Positions 39,890 to 63,360 of a DNA stretch of 64,000 nt are shown here, piece after piece (the first letter of the stretch is position 1; each line of letters starts with the position of its first letter). The notes beneath the pieces were generated by a model, which saw nothing but the letters and a program-made list of their open reading frames with translations, was not told where the DNA came from and made no database searches. A program made the position numbers and the translations under genes. Origin of the DNA: an uncultured Clostridia bacterium (GTDB lineage: Bacteria; Bacillota; Clostridia; Christensenellales; CAG-917); NCBI GenBank assembly GCA_947625145.1, contig CANQNC010000001.1, forward strand, positions 74,312 to 138,311, given 5' to 3'.

Positions 39890-39996
39890 GACGGGATTAT
39901 GTCCAAAGCGAGGCGATCTTAATCGTCCGCGCTTGCAAAACGGGCATGCATATTTGGCGGGGACATGCCATATACTTTGGCGATATGGAGGAGCGT

Positions 39997-41487
39997 ATGT
40001 TTGATTTTGACAAGTTGAGCGCAAGCAAATTTTATACTGCGCCGCCCGCGCAGAGAGTGGTGGAATTTTCCCCTCCGGGCATTGACGTCGACAACATTTT
40101 GAAGGTGCTGTCTCTCGCCGTGGACGCAAGATGCGTGTCCGTGGACGCCATGGACGGCTTTGCGCAGGTGAGTGGCAGGACAAATTTCCGCCTCACCTAT
40201 CTGGACAAAGAGGGCGTGGCGAGAGGCGTGGACTACAACGCTGATTTCTCTATCAAAGCGGAGGGCGATTTTTCGGCGGCAGACAGCGTAAGCGCGACGA
40301 TAAAGGTCGTGGAGACGGACGTGGAAGTCGCGGGCGCGCTAAAGCTGTCCGCGGTGCTTGAGGTGGAGGCGTGCGCCGTCCGCCGCGAGGAGTTCGAAGC
40401 GCTTGTCCGCGCGGACGATTGCTATAAGACGGAAAAGGAAATGTACATTCCGTCTTTCATTGCGGCAAAGACGACGTCCGCGCCGTTTGAAGAGGAGCAA
40501 GAGGTTGGAGGCGAGGTGTCCTCGGTGCTTGGGCTGAACACGGTTTGCGTTGTCAAAAAGGCGGTCGCCACGGACGGCGGAGTGAACGCGTCGATAGGCG
40601 TTTTCGCGACGGTGACCTACGTCGAGGGCGGCGAGATCAAACAGCGCGACTTTGCGGTGGAGCTTGAAGAGGAGCTGAACGTGGACGGCGCGGAAGCGTC
40701 CGACACAGTGGACATACAGGCTTCCGTCAAAAACGCCAAGATCGTGCTTCAAGGCGTGACGGACGACAATGTGATAAAGATAGAAGGAGAGGTCGCGCTG
40801 AAAGTTCAGGTGTTCAGATGCGCGAAAGTGGGCGTGATAGAGGACCTGTTCACCCTCCGCAACGAGGTGGAGATCACTCGCGCCACCGCGCCTTACGTGT
40901 GCTTTGACGGCTGCGGCTATTTTTCCAAACGTATCGAGGGCGTGGCTATGCTCGGCGACAACCGCGCCGCGGCGCTTGACATCAACGCTCTGCCGTATGC
41001 GCGCTGCTATACGTCAAAGGCGTACGTGGACGACGGCGGCAAACTTGTCGTGGAGGGCGTTGTCAACACGGATATCATCTATTCGGACGAAAACGGCTAC
41101 AACTCCGTGCGCACCGAGATCCCCTTCTCCCTCGAGAAAGAAAGCGAAAAGCCCTTCTCGCAGATCGTCAAGGTGAAGTGCGGAGTTGAAAAGATATCCG
41201 CTTCCGTCAAAAGAGAGCGCGAGCTCGAGCTGGACATAAGGCTGGGGATAGAGGCGTGCGGATTCAGCCCCGTCACCCTCAGCTATATCAGCGCGGTGGA
41301 GGTGGGCGAGGAAAAGCCGCAAAACACATCGGGCGTATCCCTCTATATCGCAAAGGGCGAGGACACCCTTCTCGACCTGTGCAAGGCGCTCACCGCCATG
41401 CCCGAGGACATCCTCGCGCAAAATCCCGCGCTCACGTTCCCGCTTGAAGCGGGCGTAAGAGTGGTGTATTTCCGCGCCGCTTCCTAG
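39997..41487 (+). CDS. SipL-like sporulation protein (repeated DUF3794/SPOCS-type beta domains with a C-terminal LysM-like domain)
   Basis: 496 aa. Repeated V..V.v.G-type beta segments. The C-terminal SLYIAKGEDTLLDLCKALTAMPEDILAQNPALTFPLEAGVRVVYF fits the LysM pattern. GGAGG lies upstream of the ATG at 39997. The neighbourhood with veg fits. Confidence 0.55.
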   Translation: MFDFDKLSASKFYTAPPAQRVVEFSPPGIDVDNILKVLSLAVDARCVSVDAMDGFAQVSGRTNFRLTYLDKEGVARGVDYNADFSIKAEGDFSAADSVSATIKVVETDVEVAGALKLSAVLEVEACAVRREEFEALVRADDCYKTEKEMYIPSFIAAKTTSAPFEEEQEVGGEVSSVLGLNTVCVVKKAVATDGGVNASIGVFATVTYVEGGEIKQRDFAVELEEELNVDGAEASDTVDIQASVKNAKIVLQGVTDDNVIKIEGEVALKVQVFRCAKVGVIEDLFTLRNEVEITRATAPYVCFDGCGYFSKRIEGVAMLGDNRAAALDINALPYARCYTSKAYVDDGGKLVVEGVVNTDIIYSDENGYNSVRTEIPFSLEKESEKPFSQIVKVKCGVEKISASVKRERELELDIRLGIEACGFSPVTLSYISAVEVGEEKPQNTSGVSLYIAKGEDTLLDLCKALTAMPEDILAQNPALTFPLEAGVRVVYFRAAS

Positions 41488-47659: not shown

Positions 47660-47908
47660 AAAACTCCTCCTTATTATTGTCCTCTTCGCATTTATTATAC
47701 CCCCATGGCGTATATTGTCAAGTGTCTGAAAAAAATTAGAAAACAAAAATTTTCAAAAATTATAAATATGCATTTTTTGCGGGAAGCAAACGCCTTTGAA
47801 TTGAATTGTTGCGAATAATTATGTGCATAATTTTGGATATTTATGAATAAAACATACATTTTTGTTTATAAAACGCAAATTTTGTTTCAAAATTATACAT
47901 TCAATCGA

Positions 47909-47938
47909 TTGACAACGGTTTTCGGACGGTGCTATACT
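47909..47938 (+). promoter_or_regulatory. Sigma-A-type promoter of the glutamine synthetase gene
   Basis: TTGACA, 18-bp spacer, TATACT. Confidence 0.55.
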
Positions 47939-47971
47939 CCTCGCATTGAAAATTGTTTTCGGAGGTGTATT

Positions 47972-50059
47972 ATGACGTCTGTCAACTCGATTTTCGGCTC
48001 GATGGTGTTCGGCGACGATGTTATGAAGGAGAGGCTCCCCAAAGAGACCTACGTTGCTCTGCAACAGACCATCAAAAGCGGCGCCGCTCTCGACATTTCC
48101 ATTGCAAACGTGGTCGCAAGCGCGATGAAGGAATGGGCGATCGGCAAGGGCGCTACGCATTATACGCATTGGTTCCAGCCCATGACGGGCATCACCGCGG
48201 AAAAACACGACAGCTTCATCGCTCCCGCGGAGGGCGGCAAGGCTATCATGGAGTTTTCGGGCAAGACCCTTGTCAAGGGCGAACCCGACGCAAGCTCCTT
48301 CCCAAGCGGCGGGCTCAGGGCGACCTTCGAGGCGAGAGGTTACACGGCGTGGGATCCCACGTCCTACGCCTTTGTCAAGGACGGATGCCTCTATATCCCC
48401 ACCGCGTTTTGCTCGTACGGCGGGCAGGCGCTCGACAAAAAGACGCCTCTTTTGAGGTCCATGGAAGCGATCAATCGGCAGGCGCTCAGAGTGCTCAGGC
48501 TGTTCGGCAACACCGAAGCGCAAGCTGTCCGCACCACAGTCGGCCCCGAGCAGGAATATTTCCTCATAGACAAGGCGATGTACGACAGGCGCAGGGACCT
48601 CATCTACACGGGCAGGACGCTGTTCGGCGCGCGCGCTCCCAAGGGGCAGGAGATGGAGGACCATTATTTCGGCGCGATCAAGCCCCGCGTCAAGGCGTTC
48701 ATGCAGGAGCTTGACGAGGAGCTTTGGAAGGTCGGCGTTCTCGCCAAAACCGAGCACAATGAAGTCGCGCCCGCTCAGCACGAGCTTGCGCCCATCTTCA
48801 CGACGACCAATATCGCGTGCGATCACAATCAGCTGACAATGGAGCTGTTGAAAAACGTCGCCGCGCGCCACGGAATGGTATGCTTGCTTCACGAAAAACC
48901 CTTCGACGGCGTAAACGGCAGCGGCAAGCACAACAATTGGTCCATATCCACGGATACGGGCGTAAATCTGTTGGAGCCGGGGGATACCCCCGCGGACAAC
49001 GCGCAATTTTTGCTGTTTTTGACAGCGGTCATAAAGGCGGTCGACGAATATCAGGATCTGCTCAGGATCTCCGTCGCTTCCGCGGGCAACGATCACCGCT
49101 TGGGCGCAAACGAGGCGCCTCCCGCGATAGTGTCCATGTTTTTGGGGGACGAGCTTGACGGCGTGCTGACCGCCATAGAAAAAGGCGCCGCCTACGACGG
49201 CACAAAGCGCGGAAGCCTCGCGATCGGGGCGGACGTACTGCCCAAGCTGCCGAAGGACTCAACCGACCGAAACCGCACTTCACCGTTTGCTTTTACGGGC
49301 AACAAGTTCGAGTTCCGCATGTTGGGCTCCTCGGAATCCATCGCCTGCGCAAACATCATGCTCAACACCGCGGTCGCGGAAGCGCTGAGTTGTTTCGCGG
49401 ACGAGCTTGAGGGCGCAAAGGATTTCTCCGTCGCGCTCAACAAGCTGATAAGGCGCGAGATAAGCGCTCATCGCCGCATCATCTTCAACGGCAACGGCTA
49501 CAACGACGAGTGGGTCGCGGAGGCAGAGCGCAGAGGTCTTTTGAACCTCCGCACGACTCCCGACTGCCTCACGCACTATATGGATCCAAAAAACGTGCGT
49601 CTGTTCGAAAAGCACGGCGTGTTCACCGAGCAGGAGATGGCGGCGCGCCATGACATTATCCTCGAAAATTACTCAAAGACTCTCCTCATAGAGGCGCGCA
49701 CCATGGTGGATATGGCGACAAGGGACTATCTGCCCGCCGTCACCGCGTATGCGGGCAAACTCGCCGCCGACGTCAACGCGATCATGGCGCTCGGCGTCAA
49801 TGTCGAGGACAAAAAGGCGCTCATCGCCCGCTTGTGCGAGCTGTCCTCTTTGGCGTACGCCGACCTCGACGTCCTCTCCGCCGCGATCTCCCGCGTCGAA
49901 GCGATCTCCGACGTCACCGAGCGCGCCTTCATCGCCAAGGACGCCCTCCTTCCCGCCATGCAAACTCTCCGCTCTCACATCGACTCGCTCGAGGTCATCA
50001 CCTCACGTGAGGCGTGGGGGGTGCCGGGGTATGGGGATATGCTTTTCTCCGTCCGTTAA
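47972..50059 (+). CDS. glnA: Glutamine synthetase, type III
   Basis: 695 aa, the GSIII size class. [13 protein letters not shown] and N-terminal [17 protein letters not shown] are typical of GlnN-type enzymes. Confidence 0.85.
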
Positions 50060-50692: not shown

Positions 50693-53464
50693 ATGAAAAA
50701 GAATTTTTTGAAGGTGTTTATCGTCACATTGTTTGTCGTCGTGCTTGCGGCGGCGCTTGTCGCTTGCAACGGCGGGGACAACGCGTCCGACAAAAAACCG
50801 TCGGGCGGAGGAAATCACGAAGAAGAACCGACTTCAAATGTGTTGACGGACGCGCAAATGGAGGACATGTTCGATTTGACGCTTGACGAAAAAGGATACG
50901 CGATCGGCAGATACATGGGATCCGTTGCCGACCTCGCTCTCCCTTCCACGTACAAAAACAAGCCGATCTACGCCATTGGGCAAGGAACGTTTAAGGATTG
51001 CGCGGTCTTGACGTCGATCGCGATTCCCGACAGCGTGCAAATCATAGGCGTAAAGGCGTTTTCGGGTTGTACGGGATTGAGGGAGATTATCGTCCCCGGC
51101 AGCGTGACAGACATTGGGGCGTACGCGTTCTTCGGGTGCGTCGGGTTGCGTACGGTGACGCTGTGCGAGGGCGTCAAAACCATAGCGCAGGACGCATTTT
51201 CCAACTGCTATGGATTGATGGAGATAGTTGTCCCCGAAAGCGTGAAAACAATAAGTTTCTCGTCGTTTGGAAACACCTACAAACTTGTGCATATACGCAA
51301 TCTGAGCGGCGCGGAGATATCGTCTCCCGCAACGGACGGCGAAGTTTTGACCTCGGCAAGCGCGGAGTTCAAAAACAAACTTGAAAAAGACGAGCACGGC
51401 ATTTGGACATACACCGTGGGCGAAAAGGTGTATGCCATTGATTATGAGGGGAAAGACGCAAATATTGATTTTTCATTGAACGACAAGATCAACACAATCT
51501 ATCCGAATGCATTTTATGAGCGTACGGATATAGAGTCCGTCGTCATTCCCGGCAATGTGAAAAACATATATGAGTATGCATTCGGGGGCTGTACGGGCTT
51601 GAGGACGGCGACGATAGGCGACGGAGTCTACTTTGTGGGAATGAATTTGTTTTCTCATTGCGTCAACTTGACTCAAATATACATCCCCGACAGCGTGCAA
51701 TTGATAAGCAACAACTCGTTCGAATATTGCAACAAACTTGTGCACATACGCAATCTGAGCGGTGTTGAAATATCTTCTCCCGCGGCGATAGGCGGTGAGG
51801 TCGTGACATCTGCGGACGAAGAGTTTCAAAACAAGCTCGAAAAGGACGAAAACGGCGTTTTGACATACACGGTCGGAAGTACGGTGTATGCGATCGGCAG
51901 TGATGGAACAAGCTCGAACATTTCATTGAACGGAAAGGTCAACGCAATTTATCCTTATGCCTTTTATAGGCACAACGAGTTGAAGGAGATCACGATACCC
52001 GAGGGTGTGCGATCCATAGGCAATTGTGCCTTCGATGGTTGCAACGAATTGCAAACCGTCAATTGGAACGCGGCGGATTGTGCAAGCTCGTACGCCTTCT
52101 TTGACAATTGCCCGCGACTTATGACCGTGAACATAGGCAACGGCGTGCAAAATATCCCCGCATACACATTCGAGGGTTGCGAGGAGTTGCGGACCGTGAC
52201 GATCGCCGTCGGTGTGAACAGCATAGGCGACAACGCTTTCAGCGGATGCCGAAATTTGACGGAGATAACCATTCCCGCAAGCGTGCAAAGCGTAGGAGAG
52301 GCGTTTGTCAACTGCCCCAAACTTGTGCACATACGCAATCTGAGCGGCGTTGAAATATCGTCTCCCGCAACGGACGGCGAAGTCTTGACCTCGGCGAACG
52401 CGGAGTTCCAAAACAAAATCGAAAAGGACGCGAACGGCATTTGGACATACGCCGTGGGCGACAAGGTTTACGTTTTCGGTTATGAAGGGACAAATTCGAC
52501 ATTGACTCTCGGCAGTGAGATCAACGCTATTTATCCGTATGCGTTCTACGAGTGCGCGGGTTTGAAGAAGATAGATTTTTCTGACGGCATCACAATCATT
52601 GGCGCGCACGCATTCGAGGGTTGCGCGGGCTTGAGAGAGATCGCCGTCCCCGTCCACGTGGAAACCATCGGGGACAGCGCGTTCAGAGATTGCACGCGTT
52701 TGAAGAAGGTCAACTGGAACGCGACGAATTGCATGACGGCGGGCAGCGAACACTATTTCATTTTTGAAAGGTGCGCGCAGCTTGAAACCGTCAATTTCGG
52801 TGCAAGCGTACAGATCATTCCCTCATATGCGTTCGAGGAGCGCTTGGGATTGAAAGAGATACTTATTCCCGACAGCGTAAAAACCATAGAAGGGTATGCG
52901 TTTGTCGATTGCGCAAACTTGCAGACGGTGACTATAGGCAAGGGCGTTGAAAGCATAGGAGAGGGAGCGTTTTACAATTGCTCAAGTTTGAGCGCGATAA
53001 CGATCCCCGAAAAAGTGACCGCCATTGCAGACAAGACGTTCTATTATTGCAAAAAGTTGACGGAAATAACCATTCCCGACAATGTGAAAACCATAGGAAA
53101 GGAAGCGTTTGCATATGCGGCTTTGCGGACAGTGACGATAGAGGACGGTGTGGAAAGCATAGGCGAGAGCGCGTTCTTGTATTGCACGGGGTTGAGGGAG
53201 ATCATCATTCCCGCAAGCGTGCAAACCATAGGCGGCGCGGCATTCAATTTTTGCACAGCAATGCAGATGGTGTATTATGGAGGCACAAGCGAGGATTGGG
53301 ACGAGATCTCGATAGGAAGTCCCGACGGATATTTGATCGGCGTAGAGCGCAGTTATTTCCGCGCGCAGGATCCGTATCAAAACGACACGGCGGCGGACGG
53401 CGAAGCATATTGGCATTGGGACGAGGACCATTCCGCGCCCGAAATGTGGGTCAAGCAGGATTGA
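50693..53464 (+). CDS. Surface lipoprotein with BspA-type leucine-rich repeats
   Basis: Signal peptide plus lipobox (LAAALVAC). More than 25 repeats of the pattern I.IP.SV..IG..AF..C..L. Confidence 0.85.
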   Translation: MKKNFLKVFIVTLFVVVLAAALVACNGGDNASDKKPSGGGNHEEEPTSNVLTDAQMEDMFDLTLDEKGYAIGRYMGSVADLALPSTYKNKPIYAIGQGTFKDCAVLTSIAIPDSVQIIGVKAFSGCTGLREIIVPGSVTDIGAYAFFGCVGLRTVTLCEGVKTIAQDAFSNCYGLMEIVVPESVKTISFSSFGNTYKLVHIRNLSGAEISSPATDGEVLTSASAEFKNKLEKDEHGIWTYTVGEKVYAIDYEGKDANIDFSLNDKINTIYPNAFYERTDIESVVIPGNVKNIYEYAFGGCTGLRTATIGDGVYFVGMNLFSHCVNLTQIYIPDSVQLISNNSFEYCNKLVHIRNLSGVEISSPAAIGGEVVTSADEEFQNKLEKDENGVLTYTVGSTVYAIGSDGTSSNISLNGKVNAIYPYAFYRHNELKEITIPEGVRSIGNCAFDGCNELQTVNWNAADCASSYAFFDNCPRLMTVNIGNGVQNIPAYTFEGCEELRTVTIAVGVNSIGDNAFSGCRNLTEITIPASVQSVGEAFVNCPKLVHIRNLSGVEISSPATDGEVLTSANAEFQNKIEKDANGIWTYAVGDKVYVFGYEGTNSTLTLGSEINAIYPYAFYECAGLKKIDFSDGITIIGAHAFEGCAGLREIAVPVHVETIGDSAFRDCTRLKKVNWNATNCMTAGSEHYFIFERCAQLETVNFGASVQIIPSYAFEERLGLKEILIPDSVKTIEGYAFVDCANLQTVTIGKGVESIGEGAFYNCSSLSAITIPEKVTAIADKTFYYCKKLTEITIPDNVKTIGKEAFAYAALRTVTIEDGVESIGESAFLYCTGLREIIIPASVQTIGGAAFNFCTAMQMVYYGGTSEDWDEISIGSPDGYLIGVERSYFRAQDPYQNDTAADGEAYWHWDEDHSAPEMWVKQD
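51281..52475 (+). repeat. Three intragenic super-repeats within the LRR gene
   Basis: About 155-bp near-identical blocks start at 51281, 51734 and 52319 (AAACTTGTGCA(T/C)ATACGCAATCTGAGCGG...). They encode KLVHIRNLSG.EISSPA..GEV.TSA..EF.NK.EKD..G..TY.VG..VY. Confidence 0.85.
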
Positions 53465-53943: not shown

Positions 53944-54663
53944 ATGGCATTTCTTCAAGGAATGGGCTACAAACTTGACATTGTGTTTGTGATCGACTCC
54001 ACGGGAAGCATGGGCCCCATCATCAACGAGGTCAAGAGCAACGCGCTTACGCTCGGCGACAGACTCAAAGAAGGACTTGAGGCGGAAAGCAAGATGGTTT
54101 CCGAAATGAGAGTCAAGGTCGTTGACTTTGCGGACTACGCAAGCGAGGGCGACGAGGCGATCCGTCAAACCGAGTTCTTCTCTCTGCCCGATCAAAAGGC
54201 GCAGTTTGAGGCGGCGGTCAACGGCATCAACATCGACATGCGCGGCGGCGACATCCCCGAAAACGGACTTGAAGCGCTCTATTCTGCAATGTGCGCGGAT
54301 TGGGTGAAGATCAGACCGGGCGAGAAGGGCCGTCACATCATCATCGTCATGTCGGACGCGGTTCCTCTTCATCTGCATGAGAGAGACGGGAGCATCGGCT
54401 ATCCCAGCGAGGACATCCCCGCAGACGTCGCGGCGCTCGAGAGCATCTGGAGCGAGAAAGACGCGCAGGCGGCGAGCACCGAGCTCAACCCCAACGCAAA
54501 GCGCCTTATCCTCTTTGTGCCCGAAGGCAGAGACGCGGCGGGCCACACATGGGACACGCTTGCAACATGGGAAAACACGGTTCTCAACCCCATCAACCCC
54601 GCGGCGGGTCTTGGCGAAATAGATCTCGACGATATCATCAAAGAGGTTGTCAGGAGCTTCTGA
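53944..54663 (+). CDS. Small cytoplasmic von Willebrand factor A (vWA) domain protein, TerY-like
   Basis: MIDAS start LDIVFVIDSTGSMGP (DxTxS), later GGDIPENG and IIIVMSDAVP. 239 aa, no signal peptide. GGAGG RBS. Confidence 0.8.
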   Translation: MAFLQGMGYKLDIVFVIDSTGSMGPIINEVKSNALTLGDRLKEGLEAESKMVSEMRVKVVDFADYASEGDEAIRQTEFFSLPDQKAQFEAAVNGINIDMRGGDIPENGLEALYSAMCADWVKIRPGEKGRHIIIVMSDAVPLHLHERDGSIGYPSEDIPADVAALESIWSEKDAQAASTELNPNAKRLILFVPEGRDAAGHTWDTLATWENTVLNPINPAAGLGEIDLDDIIKEVVRSF

Positions 54664-54732
54664 TCGTTTGATGTCGTGCGGAAAGGCAGGCATGCCTTTC
54701 CGCACATTTTTTTAATACAGGAGGACAAATAT

Positions 54733-57045
54733 ATGCCCGTAAAAGAGCGAGAACTTGTAAGTCATCGCCCAAACGTCGCCTTCTTGGGGAAGCGCGACGG
54801 CGTGGGGAACAGCTTCCTCGATCTGTCCAAGGACAGATTGGTTGTTTTTTCCGAGAGGTCAGGCAACCTTTATAAGTACGGCGGAGACGCGTATCCCGTC
54901 GTGTGGGAGGAAGAGAAAAACGGCATAAAATACGGGCTGATCCTAGCCGCGGACGGCGTGGGACAGGGCGGATTTGTTCATCCGTCTCTCAAGCGCAGGC
55001 TCTGCGAGCTGATAAGCCGCGAATACGGCGATATGAAAAACGACGTCGAACTCTCGGACGAGGACAACAAGTTGATGCTCGCCGTTTTTTTGAAGGTCAT
55101 GTTCGACATCGAGCCCTTCTCCGCTGCGGAGAATGACGCGCATGACGCGCAGAGCAAAGAGGTGTTTGAATACGCGCTCCGTTGCTTCGCCGACGTGCCC
55201 GTGGGCGGATATTACGGCGGAAGAAAGCCGCTGAACAGCGCGGACGAGGACCAACAGGTCGTCACGCCTTTTTACAACAGAGACAGTCAGTCCCTTGCGT
55301 CGCGAATTGCTTGCGTTTGGATATATCAGCAATTCAGGACGTGGGCGCTTGACAAACATTTGACAAAATGGACGACAAAAGATGTCAACGAACTCAGAGA
55401 GTCCATCACCGACAGCATGTATCGGGATGACGAATCCTCTTTGAGCGGCAGGGTAAGACAGCTGTTCTCCTACGACGACGCGCCGAAGGAGGACAACCGC
55501 AACATATATTATCTGCCCGCCACGGTGGCAGCTTGGTTTTATATCGACGACGGCAAAAAGATATCCGCCGTCGCGCTCAACTGCGGGGACGCGAGATGCT
55601 ATAAGGTGGACCTCGCGGACGGCGTGAAGCAAATTTCTGACGACGACGTTGTGGACGGCGACAAGATGAGCGCGTTTGTGCACTTCGGCGTCACAAGAAG
55701 AAGCGCCGCAAACGGCTATGAGGGCTACTTCGATGGCACTTTCCGCGCCGCGATCGTCGAGCTTCAAGCTCCATGCGCGCTGTTTGCGTGCTCGGACGGC
55801 GTTTACGACACCTGCCCGCAGGAGTGGCTTGGGGAGCAGGAACGTCCGCTCGGATTTGAAAACGGAGATTGCAGCGATATCCTCTTTGAAAACAGAATGC
55901 TGAAGGCGTTCAAACGCGCCTACAGCCTTGACGACCTCGCAAGAGAGATCGTGTTCTCCTTCTACGGCCAAAACAGTCCGCACGGCTTGAAAAAGCAATT
56001 CTGCTTGGAATGGCAGGAAGCTGGCGCGGGCGAAAAGGTCAAAAAGGACGACAGCGGAACGTTTGCGGCAAAGCTGTTTTCCACGGACGGCGACCCCTTG
56101 CAACTTATGGAGAAGTTGCGCGAGGGGAAGGACGCCACCACGCTTGAAGTTTTGACGACGGTCGCGTATGAGAAAAACATTGCGTTTGTAAATCCGCACC
56201 TTCAAAGCTCGGAGGAGCAGAGCGCGGAAGAGTTTATGGAATTTGCAAGAGACGTCATCACAAACGGCGATTTTGTCGCGCTTCTGTCCGCAAGGATCCC
56301 GAAAGAGACTTTGATCGCAAAGCGCGGCGAGGGCATCGCGAGCTTTTGGGGCATAAACCTGCAAAAGGCAAATCTTGCGATCCCGTTCGGTCGCGTGCTG
56401 AAAGCGAACGCGGTCGGCATAATCAACTATTTGCTCGAACTGCATGAAAACGGAGAGGACGATCCCGAGATCGCCGCTGTCCTTGCAAAGTACAAGGTCG
56501 CGGAAAAGAAGGAGGAGTCTCAGCCCAAAATCAACTACGCCGTCGAGCGCGAACGCCTCAAATTCGAAACCATTCAGAAAGCTTTTTACGGCGATCTGCT
56601 GTTGAGGAAGGACAGATCCGACGTGATCGTGGACAGCGGCAGGCACGTAAGCGGGCTTGTGACCGAGATCGAGAATATCGAAAAGGGCTTGGCGGAACAG
56701 CAAGCGGCGGAAAGGGAAGCCCGTCTTGCCGCGGAACGCGCCGCAGACGAAGCCAAAAAAGAGGCGGAACGCGCGGCGGAAGCGGCAAGAAAAGCCGAGG
56801 AAGAGGCAAGACTTGCGGCAGAGCGCGCAGAGGAAGCAAGACGCGCGGCGGAAGGCGGCGCGCCCGCGTTCGAGTTCGAAGAGGAAGATCCCGAAAACGA
56901 AATGTCCGATTCATCCTTCCCCAAAAAGACGGGGCGCCCGAGTTGCGTCGGGGAGCGCAAGGCTCCGACCGAAGGTTCCGAGGGCGCAAGCGCGTTTACG
57001 ACTGTGACCGCAACGTCCACCGTCAAGGACGAAAACGAGGACTAA
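54733..57045 (+). CDS. PP2C-like Ser/Thr phosphatase with large inserts and an Ala/Glu/Arg-rich coiled-coil C-terminal region
   Basis: PP2C motif series: LILAADGVGQGG (DGxGG-like), ALNCGDARCY (GDSR-like), LFACSDGVYD (SDG), KKDDSGTFAA (DN.T-like). AGGAGGA lies upstream of the ATG at 54733. Confidence 0.7.
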   Translation: MPVKERELVSHRPNVAFLGKRDGVGNSFLDLSKDRLVVFSERSGNLYKYGGDAYPVVWEEEKNGIKYGLILAADGVGQGGFVHPSLKRRLCELISREYGDMKNDVELSDEDNKLMLAVFLKVMFDIEPFSAAENDAHDAQSKEVFEYALRCFADVPVGGYYGGRKPLNSADEDQQVVTPFYNRDSQSLASRIACVWIYQQFRTWALDKHLTKWTTKDVNELRESITDSMYRDDESSLSGRVRQLFSYDDAPKEDNRNIYYLPATVAAWFYIDDGKKISAVALNCGDARCYKVDLADGVKQISDDDVVDGDKMSAFVHFGVTRRSAANGYEGYFDGTFRAAIVELQAPCALFACSDGVYDTCPQEWLGEQERPLGFENGDCSDILFENRMLKAFKRAYSLDDLAREIVFSFYGQNSPHGLKKQFCLEWQEAGAGEKVKKDDSGTFAAKLFSTDGDPLQLMEKLREGKDATTLEVLTTVAYEKNIAFVNPHLQSSEEQSAEEFMEFARDVITNGDFVALLSARIPKETLIAKRGEGIASFWGINLQKANLAIPFGRVLKANAVGIINYLLELHENGEDDPEIAAVLAKYKVAEKKEESQPKINYAVERERLKFETIQKAFYGDLLLRKDRSDVIVDSGRHVSGLVTEIENIEKGLAEQQAAEREARLAAERAADEAKKEAERAAEAARKAEEEARLAAERAEEARRAAEGGAPAFEFEEEDPENEMSDSSFPKKTGRPSCVGERKAPTEGSEGASAFTTVTATSTVKDENED

Positions 57046-57089: not shown

Positions 57090-58925
57090 ATGCGTATTAG
57101 TGACTTTGTTCTGTCAGAGCCGTTGACAAGAGGGTCGAGACAAGCCGAAATGGCGAAGTGTACCTACAGAGGCAAGGTGTATCAACTGAAGATCCACAGC
57201 GCTGAGCCGAAGTGGTACAACGTTGACGACGCCATCAGAAGAAAAACGCAGGAGTTACGCAGCGCCGCGGAGGACAACAAAGAGAGGCTCCAAAGCGAGC
57301 TTGACAGCTTGAAGGCAAAAAGGGACGATTGGAACGAAAGAGACAAGATCTCGGATCAATATCTTTTGCTCAGACAAAACATCATCCGCCTTGTCAAGGG
57401 CACTCACAACTCCCATCTCGTGCCTCCCGAAGAGGCGTGGACGGAACCCATCGAGTCAAAGGGGAATGCGGTGTTTATGGTCGAGGCGACGCCTTGGCTT
57501 GAAAGCGCGGTCTGGTTTGACGAGGCAAAGCCCATTTGTTTCCACAGGGACATCCCGCAGGAAGAGCAATACGACATCATCGCTTCGCTTGCGGACGCGC
57601 TTGCGGATCTGCATGCGGCGGGCATTTTGCACTGCGACTTGAAGATTGACAACACGCTCATCACAAAGGATCCCGACGGCAAGAAGAAGGCGACCATAAT
57701 CGACTACGACGCCGCGATCATTTTGAGCGAGCTTCAATCGCGCAGATATCCTTTGAGCATGTGGAAAAACGAGATCGGCGGCACGTATTTCGCGCCCGAG
57801 TTCAAAAAACTTTTCGACATCGTGGACGCGGCGGATTCGCGCGAGTTCGACGCCTTCGATTTCAGCACGATCACGCCCAAAGCGGACGTGTATTCCCTTG
57901 CCTTTACGATCTACGAATATCTTTATGGCATGCTGTCGCCTTCAAACATCATGCCCTTCAAAACGGACGACGGCGAGATCTTGGAAGGCGTCGCGAGAAA
58001 CGACTATCCCGCCGCGGTGGAATACGGCTTCAAGCCCAATTTCCCGAGCGACCCCGCCGAGATGAGCGACCTCATCTACGGCGCGCTCAGATGGATGCTT
58101 GACAACGAGCCTGCCAATCGTCCCACCGCCGCGCAGGTGCGCGACGTGTTCAAGACGAGGGACATCAGGATGATCCCCGCGCAATATTGCAGGATAGACC
58201 TGACCACTCCTTGGGACGCGGACAAGATAGAATTTGTCCCCTCCGCGGAGTATATGGTGTCCAAAAACCCCTTGCGCGAGGGCGTGTATACCGTGCGCAG
58301 GAAGAGACCGGACGGCTCGCTCGGGCCCACCCTTTCAAGACGTGCGGCGGATCTTGTTCGCGACGGACTTGCGAGGTCCTTGGAGGCTCCCGCACCCGCG
58401 CCCGTCGAGGTGCGCGCTTTCTGGGAGAGCGACGGCATGACGGGGGATATGCCTGCATGCGTGAGGCGCAAAGACGGCATGGAAGGCAAATATGTGCTGT
58501 CCGTCTTGGGCGGGCTTTCCACGGTTTGCACGCTTGCCGAGCTTAAGCAAAAGGGCGTCGTTTGTTCGGACGCCGAACTTCTCACTCCGTGGCCCTCGGA
58601 CGCGATCCACTTCATCACAAGCAAGAGAGTGGAGCGCGACCTCACGCGCGGACCCAAACACTATGTTGTCAAAACTTTCCCCGCTCAGAGGCTGACCTCG
58701 GACGAGATGGTCGCCAAAAACTACGCGACAAAGGCGATTGCGTTCCAGATGTGGGCGGCGGACGAAGCGCTGTATGCTCCCAATCCCGAAGCCAATATGT
58801 CGGGAGTGACGAGCATCACAAGGGATTCGCTCAAAGGAAAGGGATATCGCGTTATGACCGCGGACGGCGCGTTGAAGCTGTCCATAGACGAAATGCTCGC
58901 AAAAGGCTATGTCAAAAGAAAGTAA
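57090..58925 (+). CDS. Hanks-type Ser/Thr protein kinase with four C-terminal ~55-aa repeats of an unassigned module
   Basis: Catalytic loop HCDLKIDN, DYD in place of DFG, GGTYFAPE, DVYSLAFTIYEYLYG, RPTAAQV. Repeats span aa 368-609. Confidence 0.8.
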   Translation: MRISDFVLSEPLTRGSRQAEMAKCTYRGKVYQLKIHSAEPKWYNVDDAIRRKTQELRSAAEDNKERLQSELDSLKAKRDDWNERDKISDQYLLLRQNIIRLVKGTHNSHLVPPEEAWTEPIESKGNAVFMVEATPWLESAVWFDEAKPICFHRDIPQEEQYDIIASLADALADLHAAGILHCDLKIDNTLITKDPDGKKKATIIDYDAAIILSELQSRRYPLSMWKNEIGGTYFAPEFKKLFDIVDAADSREFDAFDFSTITPKADVYSLAFTIYEYLYGMLSPSNIMPFKTDDGEILEGVARNDYPAAVEYGFKPNFPSDPAEMSDLIYGALRWMLDNEPANRPTAAQVRDVFKTRDIRMIPAQYCRIDLTTPWDADKIEFVPSAEYMVSKNPLREGVYTVRRKRPDGSLGPTLSRRAADLVRDGLARSLEAPAPAPVEVRAFWESDGMTGDMPACVRRKDGMEGKYVLSVLGGLSTVCTLAELKQKGVVCSDAELLTPWPSDAIHFITSKRVERDLTRGPKHYVVKTFPAQRLTSDEMVAKNYATKAIAFQMWAADEALYAPNPEANMSGVTSITRDSLKGKGYRVMTADGALKLSIDEMLAKGYVKRK

Positions 58926-58998
58926 TTGACAAAGCCGATGTGGCACAATCATTGCAGGTATGTTCGCGCTTTCTAACATATGCTGTATGGGGTGCGTT

Positions 58999-61017
58999 AT
59001 GGCGGAAGAAAGGATCTATCAACCTTGGGATGAGGACCGCATCAAGCCCGTTGAGGGCAGCAACTACAAATTTTGGCGCGGGTCCGAACCGGGGAAATAC
59101 TTTTATAGCATAGGCTCCATTTACGGCGGGGAAACGACCGCCGCGACCCTTGTCGATCGGTTTCACGCCGCGGTGCGCCTCGACGGCTCCTCCGCCGCGC
59201 CGAAAGCGGAAACGGCAAGAGCCGAGGATACGAGAGTGGGGTCTATGCTTGACAGATTCCGCGCCTCTAGGCGTACGGGACCTTCCGCCGAGAGCGAGGA
59301 ACCAAGCGCGGACAGCGCGGCGCCCGCAAGGGAAGAGTCGATTGAAATCGTGAGCAACGCAGACGACAAAATCGAGGAAGAGGAAGCCTTGCCCGAGGAC
59401 TCTGCTGAAGAGGAATACGAGGGACAGGCTCCCGAAACCGCCGAATACGCGGACTTGCAGGCCGCGCCCGCTGAGGACGGCGAGCATATCTGTGAGCCTT
59501 GGCCAAGCGACGGCATCGTCTTTGTCAAGGGAGATTGGAAAATTTGGCGCGCCGCGTACGAGGGCATGTATTTCTATGCGGTGGGCGGCACGCCGGGCAG
59601 AGACGCCGTGGACGCCGTGTCCCTCATGGAGTGGAACATGGCGACGTTGCCCACATATATCGCGCTGACGCCGTGGATAAGCGGGCTTGTCTTCAAGGAT
59701 GGGGATTGGCAGATCATGCGGGACGTCTTTGCGGGCGGCGCAAACAAAAACAGAAAATATTATATCCAAACCGCAAGCGGCGTGGAAAAAGTCAATATGT
59801 ACGAGCTTTTGGCGCGGGATATGGCGACTTGCGACGCTTCGGTGGAGAAAGAGATAGAGTCCGCCGCGCTGTCTGCGATCAAGGGCGATGATCAATATCG
59901 TCCGTGGCCTTCGGACAAGATCGTGTTTGCGGAAAGAGCGGGAGTGACGATCAGGCGCGCAAGCGCGGAGGGCGTGTACGTCCTCAAAAACGGCAGTTTC
60001 AGCAGAAGCGTAAATGCCGCGCGTTTGAGGGAAGAGAGGTTGGCTATCTCCGCCCGCGACGCAGGCATAGCAAGGCTGAGGTCCTCGCAGAGCCTCACGT
60101 GGCAAAGGCTTCAAAGCGACTTCGCCGACTTCTGGAAGCACGAGGATCCGCAATCCGTGGACAGTTTCAGGGAGATCGCCGCGATTTGGCAGGAGCTTCG
60201 CACAAAAAACTCTCCCGTTCGGCAGAGGATCAAGGGCAAATATCTTGAAACGTGCGCGGTGATCGCGGAGGCAATGCGGAAAATCGCGGATTGTCGCGAG
60301 GCGTTCGGCGCAATGTTCGCGCGGCTCAGAGAGATGGACGCGCAGGCAAGCAGGATCATCACCTTTGCGGACGGCATGCGCATAGACAACTTCGCGGAAA
60401 AAAAGACGCAACTCGAGGAGCAGTGCGAAGCGCTGGCTCCCTTGCTCGGCGGCTTTGAGGAGAGCTTGAACGCAGAGCTCATGCCCAAGATCAACGACGT
60501 CAACGCGCAGGCGGCTGTGCTCAGAGGGATAGATATGTGCGCGCTTTGCCCGCTTGAAAAGCTCCCGTCCGACTTCCAAAAGGAGATAGAGGGCGAGGTG
60601 AAAGAGGCTCTGGGGACGGGCTCCCTGTCGCAAGCGATCGCAAACGTCTCGGCGGAGCTGGCGCGAGTCTCTTTGGGCGGAGACAGCGACTTTGCCAAGA
60701 GCAGGAATAAGCTCTCGAATGGCGTGGACAAGTTGCGCGGCGTCATAAAGGACGCGAGGGCGCGCGCGGACGCGCTCGGGGAAAGAGCGGCAAGGCTGGA
60801 CAGCTACAAAGGAGATATCGACGGCGCGATAGGCAAAGCCCCCGGGTGGCTGACTCCGCGCCCGCGCAAGGGAGACGGGATCGCCTTCCTGACCGCGGTC
60901 AAAATCAAGGCGGCAAGCAACTTCGACGGCTATTTGCTCCCATTGAAGGGAGGCAAGCGCGTGCCCGTTTCCGCCGCGGACCTTGTGTATCTGGGGCTTG
61001 CGAAGTACGTGGCGTAA
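58999..61017 (+). CDS. Uncharacterised 672-aa protein: four N-terminal and one C-terminal copy of the same module, an acidic linker and a central ~260-aa helical region
   Basis: Good coding texture, co-directional, 73 nt after the kinase stop. PW-x-SD motifs at ORF-track aa 22, 180, 238 and 315 (GW at 629). The start could also be 58987 or 58960. Confidence 0.7.
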   Translation: MAEERIYQPWDEDRIKPVEGSNYKFWRGSEPGKYFYSIGSIYGGETTAATLVDRFHAAVRLDGSSAAPKAETARAEDTRVGSMLDRFRASRRTGPSAESEEPSADSAAPAREESIEIVSNADDKIEEEEALPEDSAEEEYEGQAPETAEYADLQAAPAEDGEHICEPWPSDGIVFVKGDWKIWRAAYEGMYFYAVGGTPGRDAVDAVSLMEWNMATLPTYIALTPWISGLVFKDGDWQIMRDVFAGGANKNRKYYIQTASGVEKVNMYELLARDMATCDASVEKEIESAALSAIKGDDQYRPWPSDKIVFAERAGVTIRRASAEGVYVLKNGSFSRSVNAARLREERLAISARDAGIARLRSSQSLTWQRLQSDFADFWKHEDPQSVDSFREIAAIWQELRTKNSPVRQRIKGKYLETCAVIAEAMRKIADCREAFGAMFARLREMDAQASRIITFADGMRIDNFAEKKTQLEEQCEALAPLLGGFEESLNAELMPKINDVNAQAAVLRGIDMCALCPLEKLPSDFQKEIEGEVKEALGTGSLSQAIANVSAELARVSLGGDSDFAKSRNKLSNGVDKLRGVIKDARARADALGERAARLDSYKGDIDGAIGKAPGWLTPRPRKGDGIAFLTAVKIKAASNFDGYLLPLKGGKRVPVSAADLVYLGLAKYVA

Positions 61018-61102
61018 GCCAAGCGCAAATCAATAGAAATCAGGCGTAGACCAAGCAAAACAAGGATTAAACCAAACATAAACAATCCGAAGGAGAAAAA
61101 CA

Positions 61103-62392
61103 ATGTCAACAGTCGAAAACAATGACGACATCATGGGCTCGGGCAGTGAAGTCCTTGAAGAGATGAAGGATCCGTCCGCCGCGGCAAAGCGCTTTGCGGA
61201 CAGCTGGAACGGCGGGATCGCAAAAAAAGGCAAGGTCGAAGAAGAGGTCGCCGAGTTTATCGAGCACTACAAGGCCTCGGTTTTCGGCGCGGGAGAGGGA
61301 GTGGATTATCTCTTCAAATTCTCCGCGGCGGTCATCACGTTGCCGCTTGCCTCTTTCGGTCAAGCCAAGATAGACGAGATCGTCTCCCCCGAGGGCATGG
61401 GCTTGGACAGCGTAAAACAACGGCTGACTTCCATACGGAAAAACTTGCACAAGGAGATCAAAGAGGCCAGCGAAGCCGTTTACGAGTGTTCGGATCCCAA
61501 CAGATATGTTGAGATCATCGGCAAAGCGAAGTTCCTTGCAAGCGCGTACGAGGCACTGAGCAGACTTTGCGACACTGTCGGCGGCAACGCGAAGCATGCG
61601 GAGCAGACTTTGGACAAATATCTTGCCGTCAAGCGCGTGGACGACTTCTTCGGGGCACAACTTGAAAAATACGGCTCCTATCCTCTTTTCAACAACTTTG
61701 TGCAGTCCGAGGAATACAAGACGTACACGCTGAGGAACAAGGGTCAGGACAGAAGGAAGCGCTCTCTTGCCATGATCCGGGCGGATCTTGCGAGGTGCTA
61801 CGGCGCGCATATGACAGAGGAGATCGCCCCTTTGTGCAAGGAATCTTCTCTTCCTTCGGCAAGGGATATCCAAAGGATAGACGAGGACCTGAAGGACAGG
61901 CGCGTCTTGGACAAGCTGATCGCCGAGCTCGGCGAATACAAAGCCGATCTTGACAGGGCTTTGCAGGCGCTCAGGAAGGACGTTGTTGAGGAGCAAAAGC
62001 AGAGGAATGTCCAAACCATCGGCGTATATTTCGATTGCGTCAAGCCCGCGGCGCCCAAGAAGGATCATCCCGACAACAGCAAAAGGGATCAGAGGCTCGT
62101 GCATTGGAACGCGGAGAGGAACGGGTATTTCGTAGGCAAAACGTTCGATTTTGAAAACTATGCGACCTTGACTGTGGAAAGGTTGGACAGCTACGTGCGG
62201 GAAGTCGCTTCCCCACAGGCAACCGAAGTGGCCGTCACTCTCGCCGCTTTGAAGAAGGCGGGGTACGTGGCTTCGGACGCGGAAGCCGTGGTGATCGTGG
62301 GCGAGTGCGCTTGGACAAAAGAGCTTAGGGTGTCCGCGCCCGACGACAAGGTGTACTTCTCACAGGCGGCAGCCGAGACTGTGCTTCGTTGA
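61103..62392 (+). CDS. Uncharacterised 429-aa mostly helical protein ending in one (possibly two) copies of the shared module
   Basis: AAGGAGA RBS. C-terminal LVHWNAERNGYFVGKTF...VTLAALKKAGYV. Confidence 0.7.
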   Translation: MSTVENNDDIMGSGSEVLEEMKDPSAAAKRFADSWNGGIAKKGKVEEEVAEFIEHYKASVFGAGEGVDYLFKFSAAVITLPLASFGQAKIDEIVSPEGMGLDSVKQRLTSIRKNLHKEIKEASEAVYECSDPNRYVEIIGKAKFLASAYEALSRLCDTVGGNAKHAEQTLDKYLAVKRVDDFFGAQLEKYGSYPLFNNFVQSEEYKTYTLRNKGQDRRKRSLAMIRADLARCYGAHMTEEIAPLCKESSLPSARDIQRIDEDLKDRRVLDKLIAELGEYKADLDRALQALRKDVVEEQKQRNVQTIGVYFDCVKPAAPKKDHPDNSKRDQRLVHWNAERNGYFVGKTFDFENYATLTVERLDSYVREVASPQATEVAVTLAALKKAGYVASDAEAVVIVGECAWTKELRVSAPDDKVYFSQAAAETVLR

Positions 62393-62426: not shown

Positions 62427-63293
62427 ATGAAGATCACAACCGTCATTGGATCATGTTCGACAAAACGCCGCCCCATGGGCATACAGTTTGTGGAGCGCGG
62501 CGGCGATTACGTTGCGGGCGGCTCATTTACGGTCACGTCCGAGGCGTCCGTGGGGGAGAGCGAGGAGCTGAACGGTGCCTTCAAGTTGTCTCAATCCTTC
62601 AGATGCAAATATTGCGGAAACAGATATGTCTATCAGTGCAGTAGGTGCGGCAAGTTCGTGTGCTATGACGGGCTTGAAAAGCACGGCGCGGTATGCCCGT
62701 CCTGCGGCAACGTCGCAAACGTCCCCGCGACAAAGACGGATCGCATCGTGCGCAGCGGCGGAGGCGGCAAAAAGCAGATTTTGATCGCCATGGACGTCTC
62801 CGAAAGCATGAACGAAAGCAGCGGTCGCACCACGCGTATGGAGGAGACCAAAAAGGCGGCGATAGACGAGTTTATCAACAAATTTGCGGGCAATCCCATG
62901 GCGCTCGTCGTGTTTTCCACGGGCACGAGGGTCGTGCTTCCGTTCTCGGAAAATTCGGACGCCGTGCGCAGAGCGGTGGCAAGCGTGCGCGCTGAGGGCG
63001 GCACGACAAGCCCGTTTGCCGAGATATGCGAAAAATTCCCCGATTTCATTCACGGCACGGGGGAGAGGATAATCGTCGTGTTTACGGACGGCGCGTGGAG
63101 CGGCAAGGAAGAGGGACATATCGCAAGAGCGCAGAACATCCGCGACGCGGGCGTGAAGATTTTGGCGATAGGTTGCGCGGGAGCGAGAGCACAATTTTTG
63201 CGCTCCATTGCAAGCCCCGGCTTCGACATTTCGGCAAACGACGGCAGCATAGGCACGGCGTTTGCGGAAGCGGCGGAAAAGGTCAGCCAATAA
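62427..63293 (+). CDS. Zinc-ribbon-fused vWA domain protein
   Basis: N-terminal CKYC...CSRC...C...CPSC cluster, then a vWA domain with a classical MIDAS motif (ILIAMDVSESM = DxSxS, GGTTSP, VVFTDGA). GGAGG RBS. Confidence 0.8.
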   Translation: MKITTVIGSCSTKRRPMGIQFVERGGDYVAGGSFTVTSEASVGESEELNGAFKLSQSFRCKYCGNRYVYQCSRCGKFVCYDGLEKHGAVCPSCGNVANVPATKTDRIVRSGGGGKKQILIAMDVSESMNESSGRTTRMEETKKAAIDEFINKFAGNPMALVVFSTGTRVVLPFSENSDAVRRAVASVRAEGGTTSPFAEICEKFPDFIHGTGERIIVVFTDGAWSGKEEGHIARAQNIRDAGVKILAIGCAGARAQFLRSIASPGFDISANDGSIGTAFAEAAEKVSQ

Positions 63294-63335
63294 GAAGTCG
63301 AAAACAAGTAGAAAACAAGAAGTCAAAAATAAAAA

Positions 63336-63360
63336 GGCGGGAGAGTATCCCGCCTTTTTT
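63336..63360 (+). terminator. Rho-independent terminator closing the six-gene operon
   Basis: GGCGGGA-GAGTA-TCCCGCC followed by TTTTTT. Confidence 0.85.

Follow-up and report, generated by a model that had tools for sequence, protein, structure and literature searches.

A diverged module of about 50 residues is repeated in two proteins encoded side by side, a Ser/Thr protein kinase (K) and a coiled-coil protein (B), in a 64,000-nucleotide stretch of DNA from an uncultured Clostridia bacterium (GenBank assembly GCA_947625145.1, contig CANQNC010000001.1, positions 74,312 to 138,311 of the forward strand). This whole stretch is designated as the window, and positions are counted from its first letter. 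The repeat is genuine. The two genes belong to a six-gene operon on the plus strand, in the order vWA1, a protein of 789 amino acids (aa), K, B, protein C and vWA2. As judged from its gene content, the operon is a variant, from Christensenellaceae-like Clostridia, of the TerY-P (TerY-phosphorylation) triad, which is found in Ter stress-response/defence loci and consists of a vWA protein, a PP2C-like phosphatase and a Ser/Thr kinase (PMC4978471, PMC11090510). The module may be an adaptor domain that couples the kinase to a scaffold or a substrate; this is the favoured reading, and its probability is put at roughly 0.45.

The copies were located by scanning the whole 64 kb, translated in six frames, with a profile built from 148 module instances from other organisms and none from the window proteins. 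This window-independent profile revealed exactly nine copies, four at the C-terminus of K and five in B (four N-terminal and one C-terminal). The four copies of the kinase and the five of B listed in the initial annotation were thereby recovered, with boundaries that agree within a few residues (Table 1). Any further six-frame match in the window stays at or below 7.3 bits (domain E 0.38). The copy K4 is degenerate; scored as a single segment, it reaches 13.0 bits, which none of 1000 shuffles attains, and it is aligned with clear fourth copies in related kinases.

The similarity between the two proteins holds in both directions. A hidden Markov model (HMM) of B copies 1-4 scores 36.7 bits against the kinase C-terminus, the best of 1000 shuffles being 7.3, and the reciprocal test of K against B gives 23.4 bits, with 7.8 as the best of 1000 shuffles. 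At the DNA level, recurrence is limited to the short stretch encoding PW-x-x-D-x-I, which indicates that the repeats are old and diverged. The initial annotation had considered that significant internal similarity might be lacking, and the shuffle tests go against this for both K and B. A chance similarity or low-complexity artefact is scarcely credible as an explanation. It would fit the copy claimed in protein C, which is at noise level, and the spurious matches of several long PPC-repeat proteins to the first small profile. However, no shuffle among 1000 reaches the scores of K2, K4 and B5 taken singly or of the K and B arrays tested against each other, the independent profile recovers the same copies, and a copy is modelled by AlphaFold with a predicted local distance difference test (pLDDT) score of 95. 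For K and B, the shuffles and the independent profile refute the chance explanation.

The initial annotation counted at least ten copies over three consecutive proteins and stated that all three end with the module. The nine copies in K and B stand, and both of these proteins do end with the module. The tenth copy, proposed at aa 332-388 of protein C (62096..62266, plus strand), does not: it scores -1.7 bits, 296 of 1000 shuffles score equally well or better, and hhalign gives a probability of 0.5%, at a different position. No match to protein C was obtained with the window-independent profile in the six-frame scan of the window, and about 40 residues of the protein follow the claimed copy.

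The consensus from 157 instances reads P (81%), W (89%), x, x, D (85%), x, I (87%), x, F (69%), then, after a variable stretch, [IV], x, [RK] (90%), continuing with G (85%), x, Y (99%) and, further on, L (95%), x, x, x, G (69%), x, A (92%). The structure of B aa 175-234, which includes the copy B2, was predicted by AlphaFold2 with an alignment of 139 sequences at a pLDDT of 95.3. The model shows a short turn at PW-x-x-D, strands, a six-residue helix of one-and-a-half turns, and a final short strand. Full-length B was predicted with an alignment of 33 sequences at a pLDDT of 79.8, with values of at least 85 from aa 175 on. In this model, B4 and B5 show the arrangement beta1-beta2-beta3-(tight turn)-beta4-helix-beta5, which is the order of SH3-like small barrels. 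Secondary structure assignment by DSSP finds five strands in the SH3 order, with beta4 followed by a short helix ahead of beta5, in the predicted structures of B2, B4 and B5. The models suggest that the module is an independently folding, so far unnamed globular domain of about 50 residues, restricted to one lineage.

The statement of the initial annotation that the module is unassigned is supported by searches of Pfam, NCBIfam, PDB sequence profiles and Foldseek, none of which gave a significant or consistent match. Among 139 module instances compared with Pfam, no family was matched by more than one instance. The sequence-profile search of PDB gave nothing significant, and only a 9-bit partial match to a PWWP domain was seen. 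This lead (DNMT3B, 6r3e) was rejected, as the match has 9 bits per stretch and its E-value of 0.0025 is inflated by the deposited chain, which holds the sequence twice. Foldseek with the B2 model, a method with little power for a query of 60 aa, returned no significant match, the best E-values being 0.97 (PDB) and 0.39 (BFVD) with TM-scores of at most 0.47. The best SH3 matches have E-values of 1.6-3.8 and TM-scores of about 0.33-0.34, and the weak neighbours include several SH3, integrase C-terminal and Tudor/Agenet domains. An SH3-like fold of the module is plausible. It is improbable, on the other hand, that the module is a diverged member of one of the named families of small-barrel repeats (bacterial SH3b, Tudor, KOW or cell-wall-binding repeats, for example): the strand order with a short helix ahead of beta5, the weak SH3 and SH3-like neighbours and the partial DNMT3B match would agree with it, while the Pfam and Foldseek results and the duplicated sequence behind the PWWP E-value speak against it. 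A cell-wall role is unlikely because the proteins have neither a signal peptide nor a transmembrane (TM) segment.

The distribution of the module was analyzed by an exhaustive HMMER search of 1.84 billion representative proteins with a profile of the 8 clear window copies (E <= 0.001). Fifty-seven proteins matched, of which about 50 are genuine. Seven matches were rejected (P0024, P0028, P0032, P0048, P0052, P0055 and P0057); they are similar only to the beta-hairpin part of the small first profile, and with the refined profile they score at most 5.8 bits or give no match. Among the five long rejected proteins, three (P0024, P0028 and P0032) are PPC-domain repeat proteins, and P0052 has other, unrelated Pfam matches. 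Nearly all genuine carriers are either Ser/Thr kinases with two to seven C-terminal copies, which answers positively the question raised earlier of whether the module is fused to kinases elsewhere, or B-type proteins. The B-type layout consists of three differentiated N-terminal copies (R1, R2 and R3), a helical middle and usually one C-terminal copy, which is undetected in about a third of the B-type proteins. The B proteins of the window and of the related locus L008 have an extra R1 copy and an acidic linker; in the window, this disordered linker divides the extra first copy from the canonical three. Two carriers have another architecture, with an unassigned N-terminal domain: in P0049 it is followed by acidic repeats and three copies, and in P0056 by two copies. 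The acidic repeat region preceding the copies of P0049 has recurring EEVETP-type units and may be compared with the linker of B. The genomes matched through the kinase alignment are metagenome-assembled genomes labelled Christensenellaceae or uncultured Firmicutes. A word-indexed search of 5.8 billion proteins returned only the query itself for protein B, and nothing for the module alignment, for which the method is too insensitive, the domain being so short.

Eight distinct loci with adequate flanks were compared: the window, L001, L003, L008, L009, L013, L019 and L020. Their common core comprises a vWA protein (about 240 aa), a protein homologous to that of 789 aa, and the kinase. In 8/8, the module is present in the kinase and in the product of at least one further gene of the operon. 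The carriers are the kinase and B in the window, L001, L008 and L013; the kinase, B and a third gene in L009 and L019; two adjacent kinases in L003; and the kinase and a 410-aa protein in L020. The other domains of the module-bearing partner vary between loci and the module is retained. Partners are encoded mostly downstream of the core, with the partner in L020 being upstream; in L003, the first two core genes are swapped. Further downstream, TerD and a TerY-like vWA protein are encoded in L001, L008 and L009, and TerD in L013; L020 includes a TerY_C-like gene and a vWA gene. In L003 (5442-10323), a B-type protein is absent, and the two adjacent kinases are paralogous, with seven and at least three copies. 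The second of them ends with a hydrophobic tail anchor.

The sharing of the module by a kinase and two neighbours, as originally proposed for the window, applies there to one neighbour only, B, but three-protein sharing does occur in L009 and L019. In each of these two loci, the third gene carries three copies, which in L009 are 58% identical to the C-terminus of the kinase of the same locus. Protein C shows no similarity to the proteins at the same position in other loci, and the word-indexed search of 5.8 billion proteins returned only protein C itself. The functions suggested at the outset, docking, recruitment or binding of a common ligand, agree with the comparative data from the eight loci.

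The adaptor reading is based on the pairing in eight loci, on conservation by position, on the terminal placement of modules on linkers, on the cytoplasmic location and on a split in charge. The small size and the specificity of the family, and the folding of the module as a domain of its own in the model, also speak for it. Copies at different positions are distinct from each other, and those at a given position are conserved over species: K1 to K4 in the kinases, and R1, R2, R3 and the C-terminal type in B. Such conservation fits defined partners better than avidity for a uniform polymer. In the model of B, the modules lie at the protein termini, set off by linkers. Neither a TM segment nor a strongly hydrophobic N-terminus is present in K, B or C (the maximum of K over a 19-residue Kyte-Doolittle window is 1.31), so any interaction is expected to be cytoplasmic. 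The arrays of proteins classed as kinases are net positive in 14/14 cases, two of which (P0049 and P0056) are not kinases, and the N-terminal arrays of B-type proteins are net negative in 25/36; the charge per copy differs with p = 2e-8 (Mann-Whitney).

If the module is an adaptor, it would physically link the kinase to one or more other module-bearing proteins of the operon. The copies would bind each other, so that the C-terminal array of the kinase holds the arrays at both ends of the coiled-coil protein B, and B would be set beside the catalytic domain as a scaffold and/or a substrate. The PP2C-like enzyme would reverse the phosphorylation. A narrower version, in which the module is a new small beta-barrel adaptor and the copies of the kinase and of B, each specific to its position, lock together as a defined hetero-complex, or bacterial "signalosome", built from one repeated domain, is possible, if somewhat unlikely. 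Should it be true, B, and in some genomes the third protein or the second kinase, would be a direct partner or substrate of the kind that has long been sought for a TerY-P-type kinase. Several points weigh against an adaptor role. The charge trend is uneven, and the copies of B in the window sum to +8. One-to-one adaptor domains are usually single in each protein, and arrays of two to seven copies are more typical of multivalent ligand binding. Binding of all the proteins to one common ligand would lead just as well to co-occurrence in the same operon. Finally, protein C and both vWA proteins are without the module, which therefore cannot be the sole assembler of the system.

The main alternative, a common ligand, is possible, if somewhat unlikely. 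The modules would not bind each other but one and the same ligand in the cytoplasm, for which nucleic acid or another anionic polymer is the most plausible candidate, and the kinase and its partners would be recruited onto it side by side. The C-termini of known TerY-P kinases, in the CoCoNuT-associated form and the form of Gao 2020, are fused to a zinc ribbon or an OB fold, which have been suggested to bind oligonucleotides (PMC11090510), and by analogy the module array at the same position might take over this role. The tandem arrangement, the consistently positive kinase arrays (+6 with an isoelectric point of 9.1 for the K array of the window) and the resemblance in strand order and weak Foldseek neighbours to small barrels, which are often nucleic-acid binders, are in line with it. 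However, the best-conserved copy, R1, is acidic, with a charge of -4 to -7 in 4/5 other loci and of -1 and -3 in the two R1-type copies of the window. The median module is about neutral, and the conserved residues are mostly those of a hydrophobic core with one Asp and one Arg, which do not form a basic patch motif. Pfam, PDB profiles and Foldseek gave no sequence or structure match to a known nucleic-acid-binding family.

It is also conceivable, with a low probability, that the modules are phospho-acceptor or autoregulatory elements, phosphorylated by the kinase in cis and on its partners and reset by the PP2C-like enzyme, in which case the module would mark substrates and not docking sites. 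This would explain the confinement of the module to the kinase and to proteins encoded beside the kinase-phosphatase pair, and Thr is the commonest residue right before PW (36 of the 118 PW-bearing copies, with Ser in another 6). Yet most copies have no conserved Ser or Thr position in common; the residues that are invariant, or nearly so, are P, W, D, I, R/K, G, Y, L and A. A folded barrel of this size (about 50 aa), present in up to seven copies, would also be an unusual design for a substrate.

The features of the operon are listed in Table 1.

Table 1. Genes, module copies and other features of the operon in the window
Feature	Position	Strand	Evidence
vWA1 (239 aa), first gene of the operon, TerY-like triad member	53944..54663	+	Pfam VWA_4 and VWA pass cut-offs
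Divergent PP2C-like protein (789-aa open reading frame), Ala/Glu/Arg-rich helical tail	54676..57045	+	Homologues and motifs
Ser/Thr protein kinase K (611 aa); kinase domain aa ~152-352, module array aa 373-609	57090..58925	+	Pfam Pkinase E = 1.2e-13
Module copy K1, aa 373-429	58206..58376	+	32.4 bits, window-independent profile
Module copy K2, aa 444-489	58419..58556	+	18.2 bits; single segment 24.6 bits, reached by 0/1000 shuffles
Module copy K3, aa 499-547	58584..58730	+	25.8 bits
Module copy K4, aa ~563-609, degenerate, PW motif gone	58776..58916	+	7.2 bits in six-frame scan
Protein B (685-aa open reading frame): module copies, acidic linker, helical bundle, terminal copy	58960..61017	+	B-type homologues
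Module copy B1, aa 21-66, extra R1-type duplicate	59020..59157	+	30.7 bits
Acidic low-complexity linker of B, aa 80-175, net charge -20	59197..59484	+	pLDDT <50
Module copy B2, aa 179-229, R1 type, best-conserved copy	59494..59646	+	55.9 bits
Module copy B3, aa 237-290, R2 type with insert	59668..59829	+	25.7 bits
Module copy B4, aa 315-362, R3 type	59902..60045	+	51.7 bits
Long-helix bundle / coiled-coil region of B, aa ~403-617	60166..60810	+	DSSP of model
Module copy B5, aa 635-682, C-terminal type	60862..61005	+	34.5 bits; single segment 40.7 bits, reached by 0/1000 shuffles
Protein C (429 aa), orphan in the variable slot of the operon	61103..62392	+	No module by profile
vWA2 (288 aa), last gene of the operon, N-terminal TerY_C-type zinc ribbon	62427..63293	+	Pfam VWA_2 1.3e-14 and TerY_C 8.1e-07, above cut-offs
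Terminator-like hairpin at the operon end, T-runs on either side	63331..63359	.	12-pair stem

Pfam assigned only the vWA domains, the kinase domain and TerY_C in the operon, and left the repeat regions, B, C and the 789-aa protein without a match. The NCBIfam scan added no assignment in the repeat regions of K and B, and PADLOC gave no match for the vWA and PP2C-like proteins. The vWA1 protein is 46-61% identical to the product of the first gene of L001, L008 and L009, and vWA2 is 42-48% identical to the products of vWA genes of L008 and L009. The 789-aa protein had no match in Pfam, NCBIfam or PADLOC scans; it is 29-39% identical to the product of the second gene of L001, L003, L008 and L009. 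Four motifs, DG-x-G-x-G, GD-x-x-x-Y, SDG-x-x-D and DDS-x-T, are invariant in 8 homologues and resemble the acidic motifs of PP2C. In PDB, the family profile comes closest to the PP2C phosphatase Stp1, with the alignment lying at the GDSR motif, at an E-value of only 0.16. The tail of the protein (aa ~660-735; 56650-56880) is rich in Ala, Glu, Arg and Lys and probably coiled-coil, and it gives spurious matches to TolA, LptE and keratin. Directly past the stop codon of vWA1, a strong terminator-like hairpin of 13 pairs (8 G-C) followed by a T-run was recognized at 54676-54705. It overlaps the first codons of the listed open reading frame of the 789-aa protein, and translation therefore probably begins at the ATG at 54733. 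This hairpin may act as an attenuator of read-through from vWA1 to the later genes of the operon.

In the kinase, K34, H181-x-D183-L-K185-x-x-N188, the DFG-like D205-x-D207 and an APE-like PE motif are invariant across 6 relatives. The NCBIfam model PknB_PASTA_kin matches K only within the kinase core (aa 152-195). Protein B has no match in Pfam or NCBIfam and is 27-34% identical to the B-type proteins of L001, L008 and L009. Its listed open reading frame begins at the ATG at 58960, 13 codons upstream of M14, which corresponds to the nearly invariant start Met of homologues; from this comparison, the true start is probably at 58999. The helices of the B model assigned by DSSP are at aa 403-414, 419-471, 475-522, 537-551, 556-570 and 577-617. 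Foldseek with this region found only generic helical bundles (E >= 0.011). A relationship of B to LmuB, indicated by PADLOC (E = 0.013) and by Lamassu LmuB among the Foldseek matches, was rejected as generic coiled-coil similarity.

The N-terminal TerY_C-type region of vWA2 (aa 1-116; 62427-62775; about 115 aa) is also a shared module. In L008 (8751-12700), four consecutive proteins, a vWA protein, a 379-aa protein, TerD and another vWA protein, start with a TerY_C-type region. These regions show 37-49% identity and are 40-45% identical to window vWA2 over the same region. The TerY_C-type region is a second example of a domain common to neighbouring genes in the same operon type.

Directly upstream of the operon, at 50693-53464, a 923-aa protein of BspA-type leucine-rich repeats is encoded (LRR_5, E = 8e-177). 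A type III glutamine synthetase (47843-50059) and a SipL-like sporulation protein (39946-41487) are encoded farther upstream. The BspA-type, glutamine synthetase and SipL-like genes point to a spore-forming member of Clostridia as the host. The plus-strand gene after the hairpin at the operon end looks by eye like that of an unrelated HAD-type hydrolase.

The combination of a vWA protein, PP2C-like motifs and a kinase probably matches the definition of the TerY-P triad. Going by these sequence features, a new domain family is present inside a new variant of the triad, and by analogy the gene cluster is probably of the stress or defence type. A dedicated, unnamed domain common to the kinase and a specific neighbour offers a concrete candidate partner for a TerY-P-type kinase. 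Domain catalogues would gain with the module a family of about 50 aa that has a confident model and no detectable relatives. Its host range is so far narrow, comprising Christensenellaceae and other uncultured Firmicutes.

Among named domains, the module is closest in appearance to SH3-like barrels (SH3, Tudor/PWWP, KOW and integrase C-terminal domains), which have a similar size and the same strand order and are enriched among its weak Foldseek neighbours. It differs from them in lacking any Foldseek similarity in PDB better than E = 0.97 and any sequence-profile match, and its PW-x-x-D-x-I-x-F and G-x-Y motifs differ from those of every named family tested. The arrangement in K is reminiscent of PASTA kinases (PknB type), in which small tandem domains, with copies differentiated by position, are also placed C-terminal to a bacterial eukaryote-type kinase. 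PASTA arrays are extracellular, past a TM helix, and bind muropeptides, whereas the module array has neither a TM helix nor a Pfam PASTA match and is present on neighbouring proteins too.

The placement of one small domain at the termini of different proteins of the same operon, with the remainder variable, is shared with operon adaptors such as the effector-associated domains (EADs), which Kaur et al. (eLife, 2020) are said to have presented as adaptors common to neighbouring conflict or signalling genes. The same terminal domain on otherwise varying operon proteins is a signature used for inferring co-assembly. In eukaryotes, PB1, SAM and death-fold domains tie kinases to scaffolds, and the split between acidic and basic module partners recalls the type I/II pairing of PB1. 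EAD and PB1 adaptors are usually single in each protein and helical death-like or ubiquitin-like, whereas the module forms arrays of two to seven beta-rich copies.

The TerY-P triad was reportedly described by Anantharaman, Iyer and Aravind in 2012, and such triads are widespread in stress-response and anti-phage loci. To our knowledge, neither binding partners nor phosphorylation targets have been established for TerY-P kinases. The operon of the window resembles these triads in its adjacent genes for a vWA protein, a putative PP2C-like protein and a Ser/Thr kinase of eukaryotic type, in the TerY_C zinc ribbon of its second vWA protein, and in the TerD genes downstream in L001, L008, L009 and L013. 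The operon differs in that its phosphatase-like protein is too diverged for detection by Pfam, and in being known so far only from Christensenellaceae-like Clostridia. Its kinase carries four module copies over the C-terminal 245 aa, at the position of the zinc ribbon or OB fold, for neither of which Pfam gives a match there, and the kinase gene is followed by an inserted gene for B, a coiled-coil protein that bears the module.

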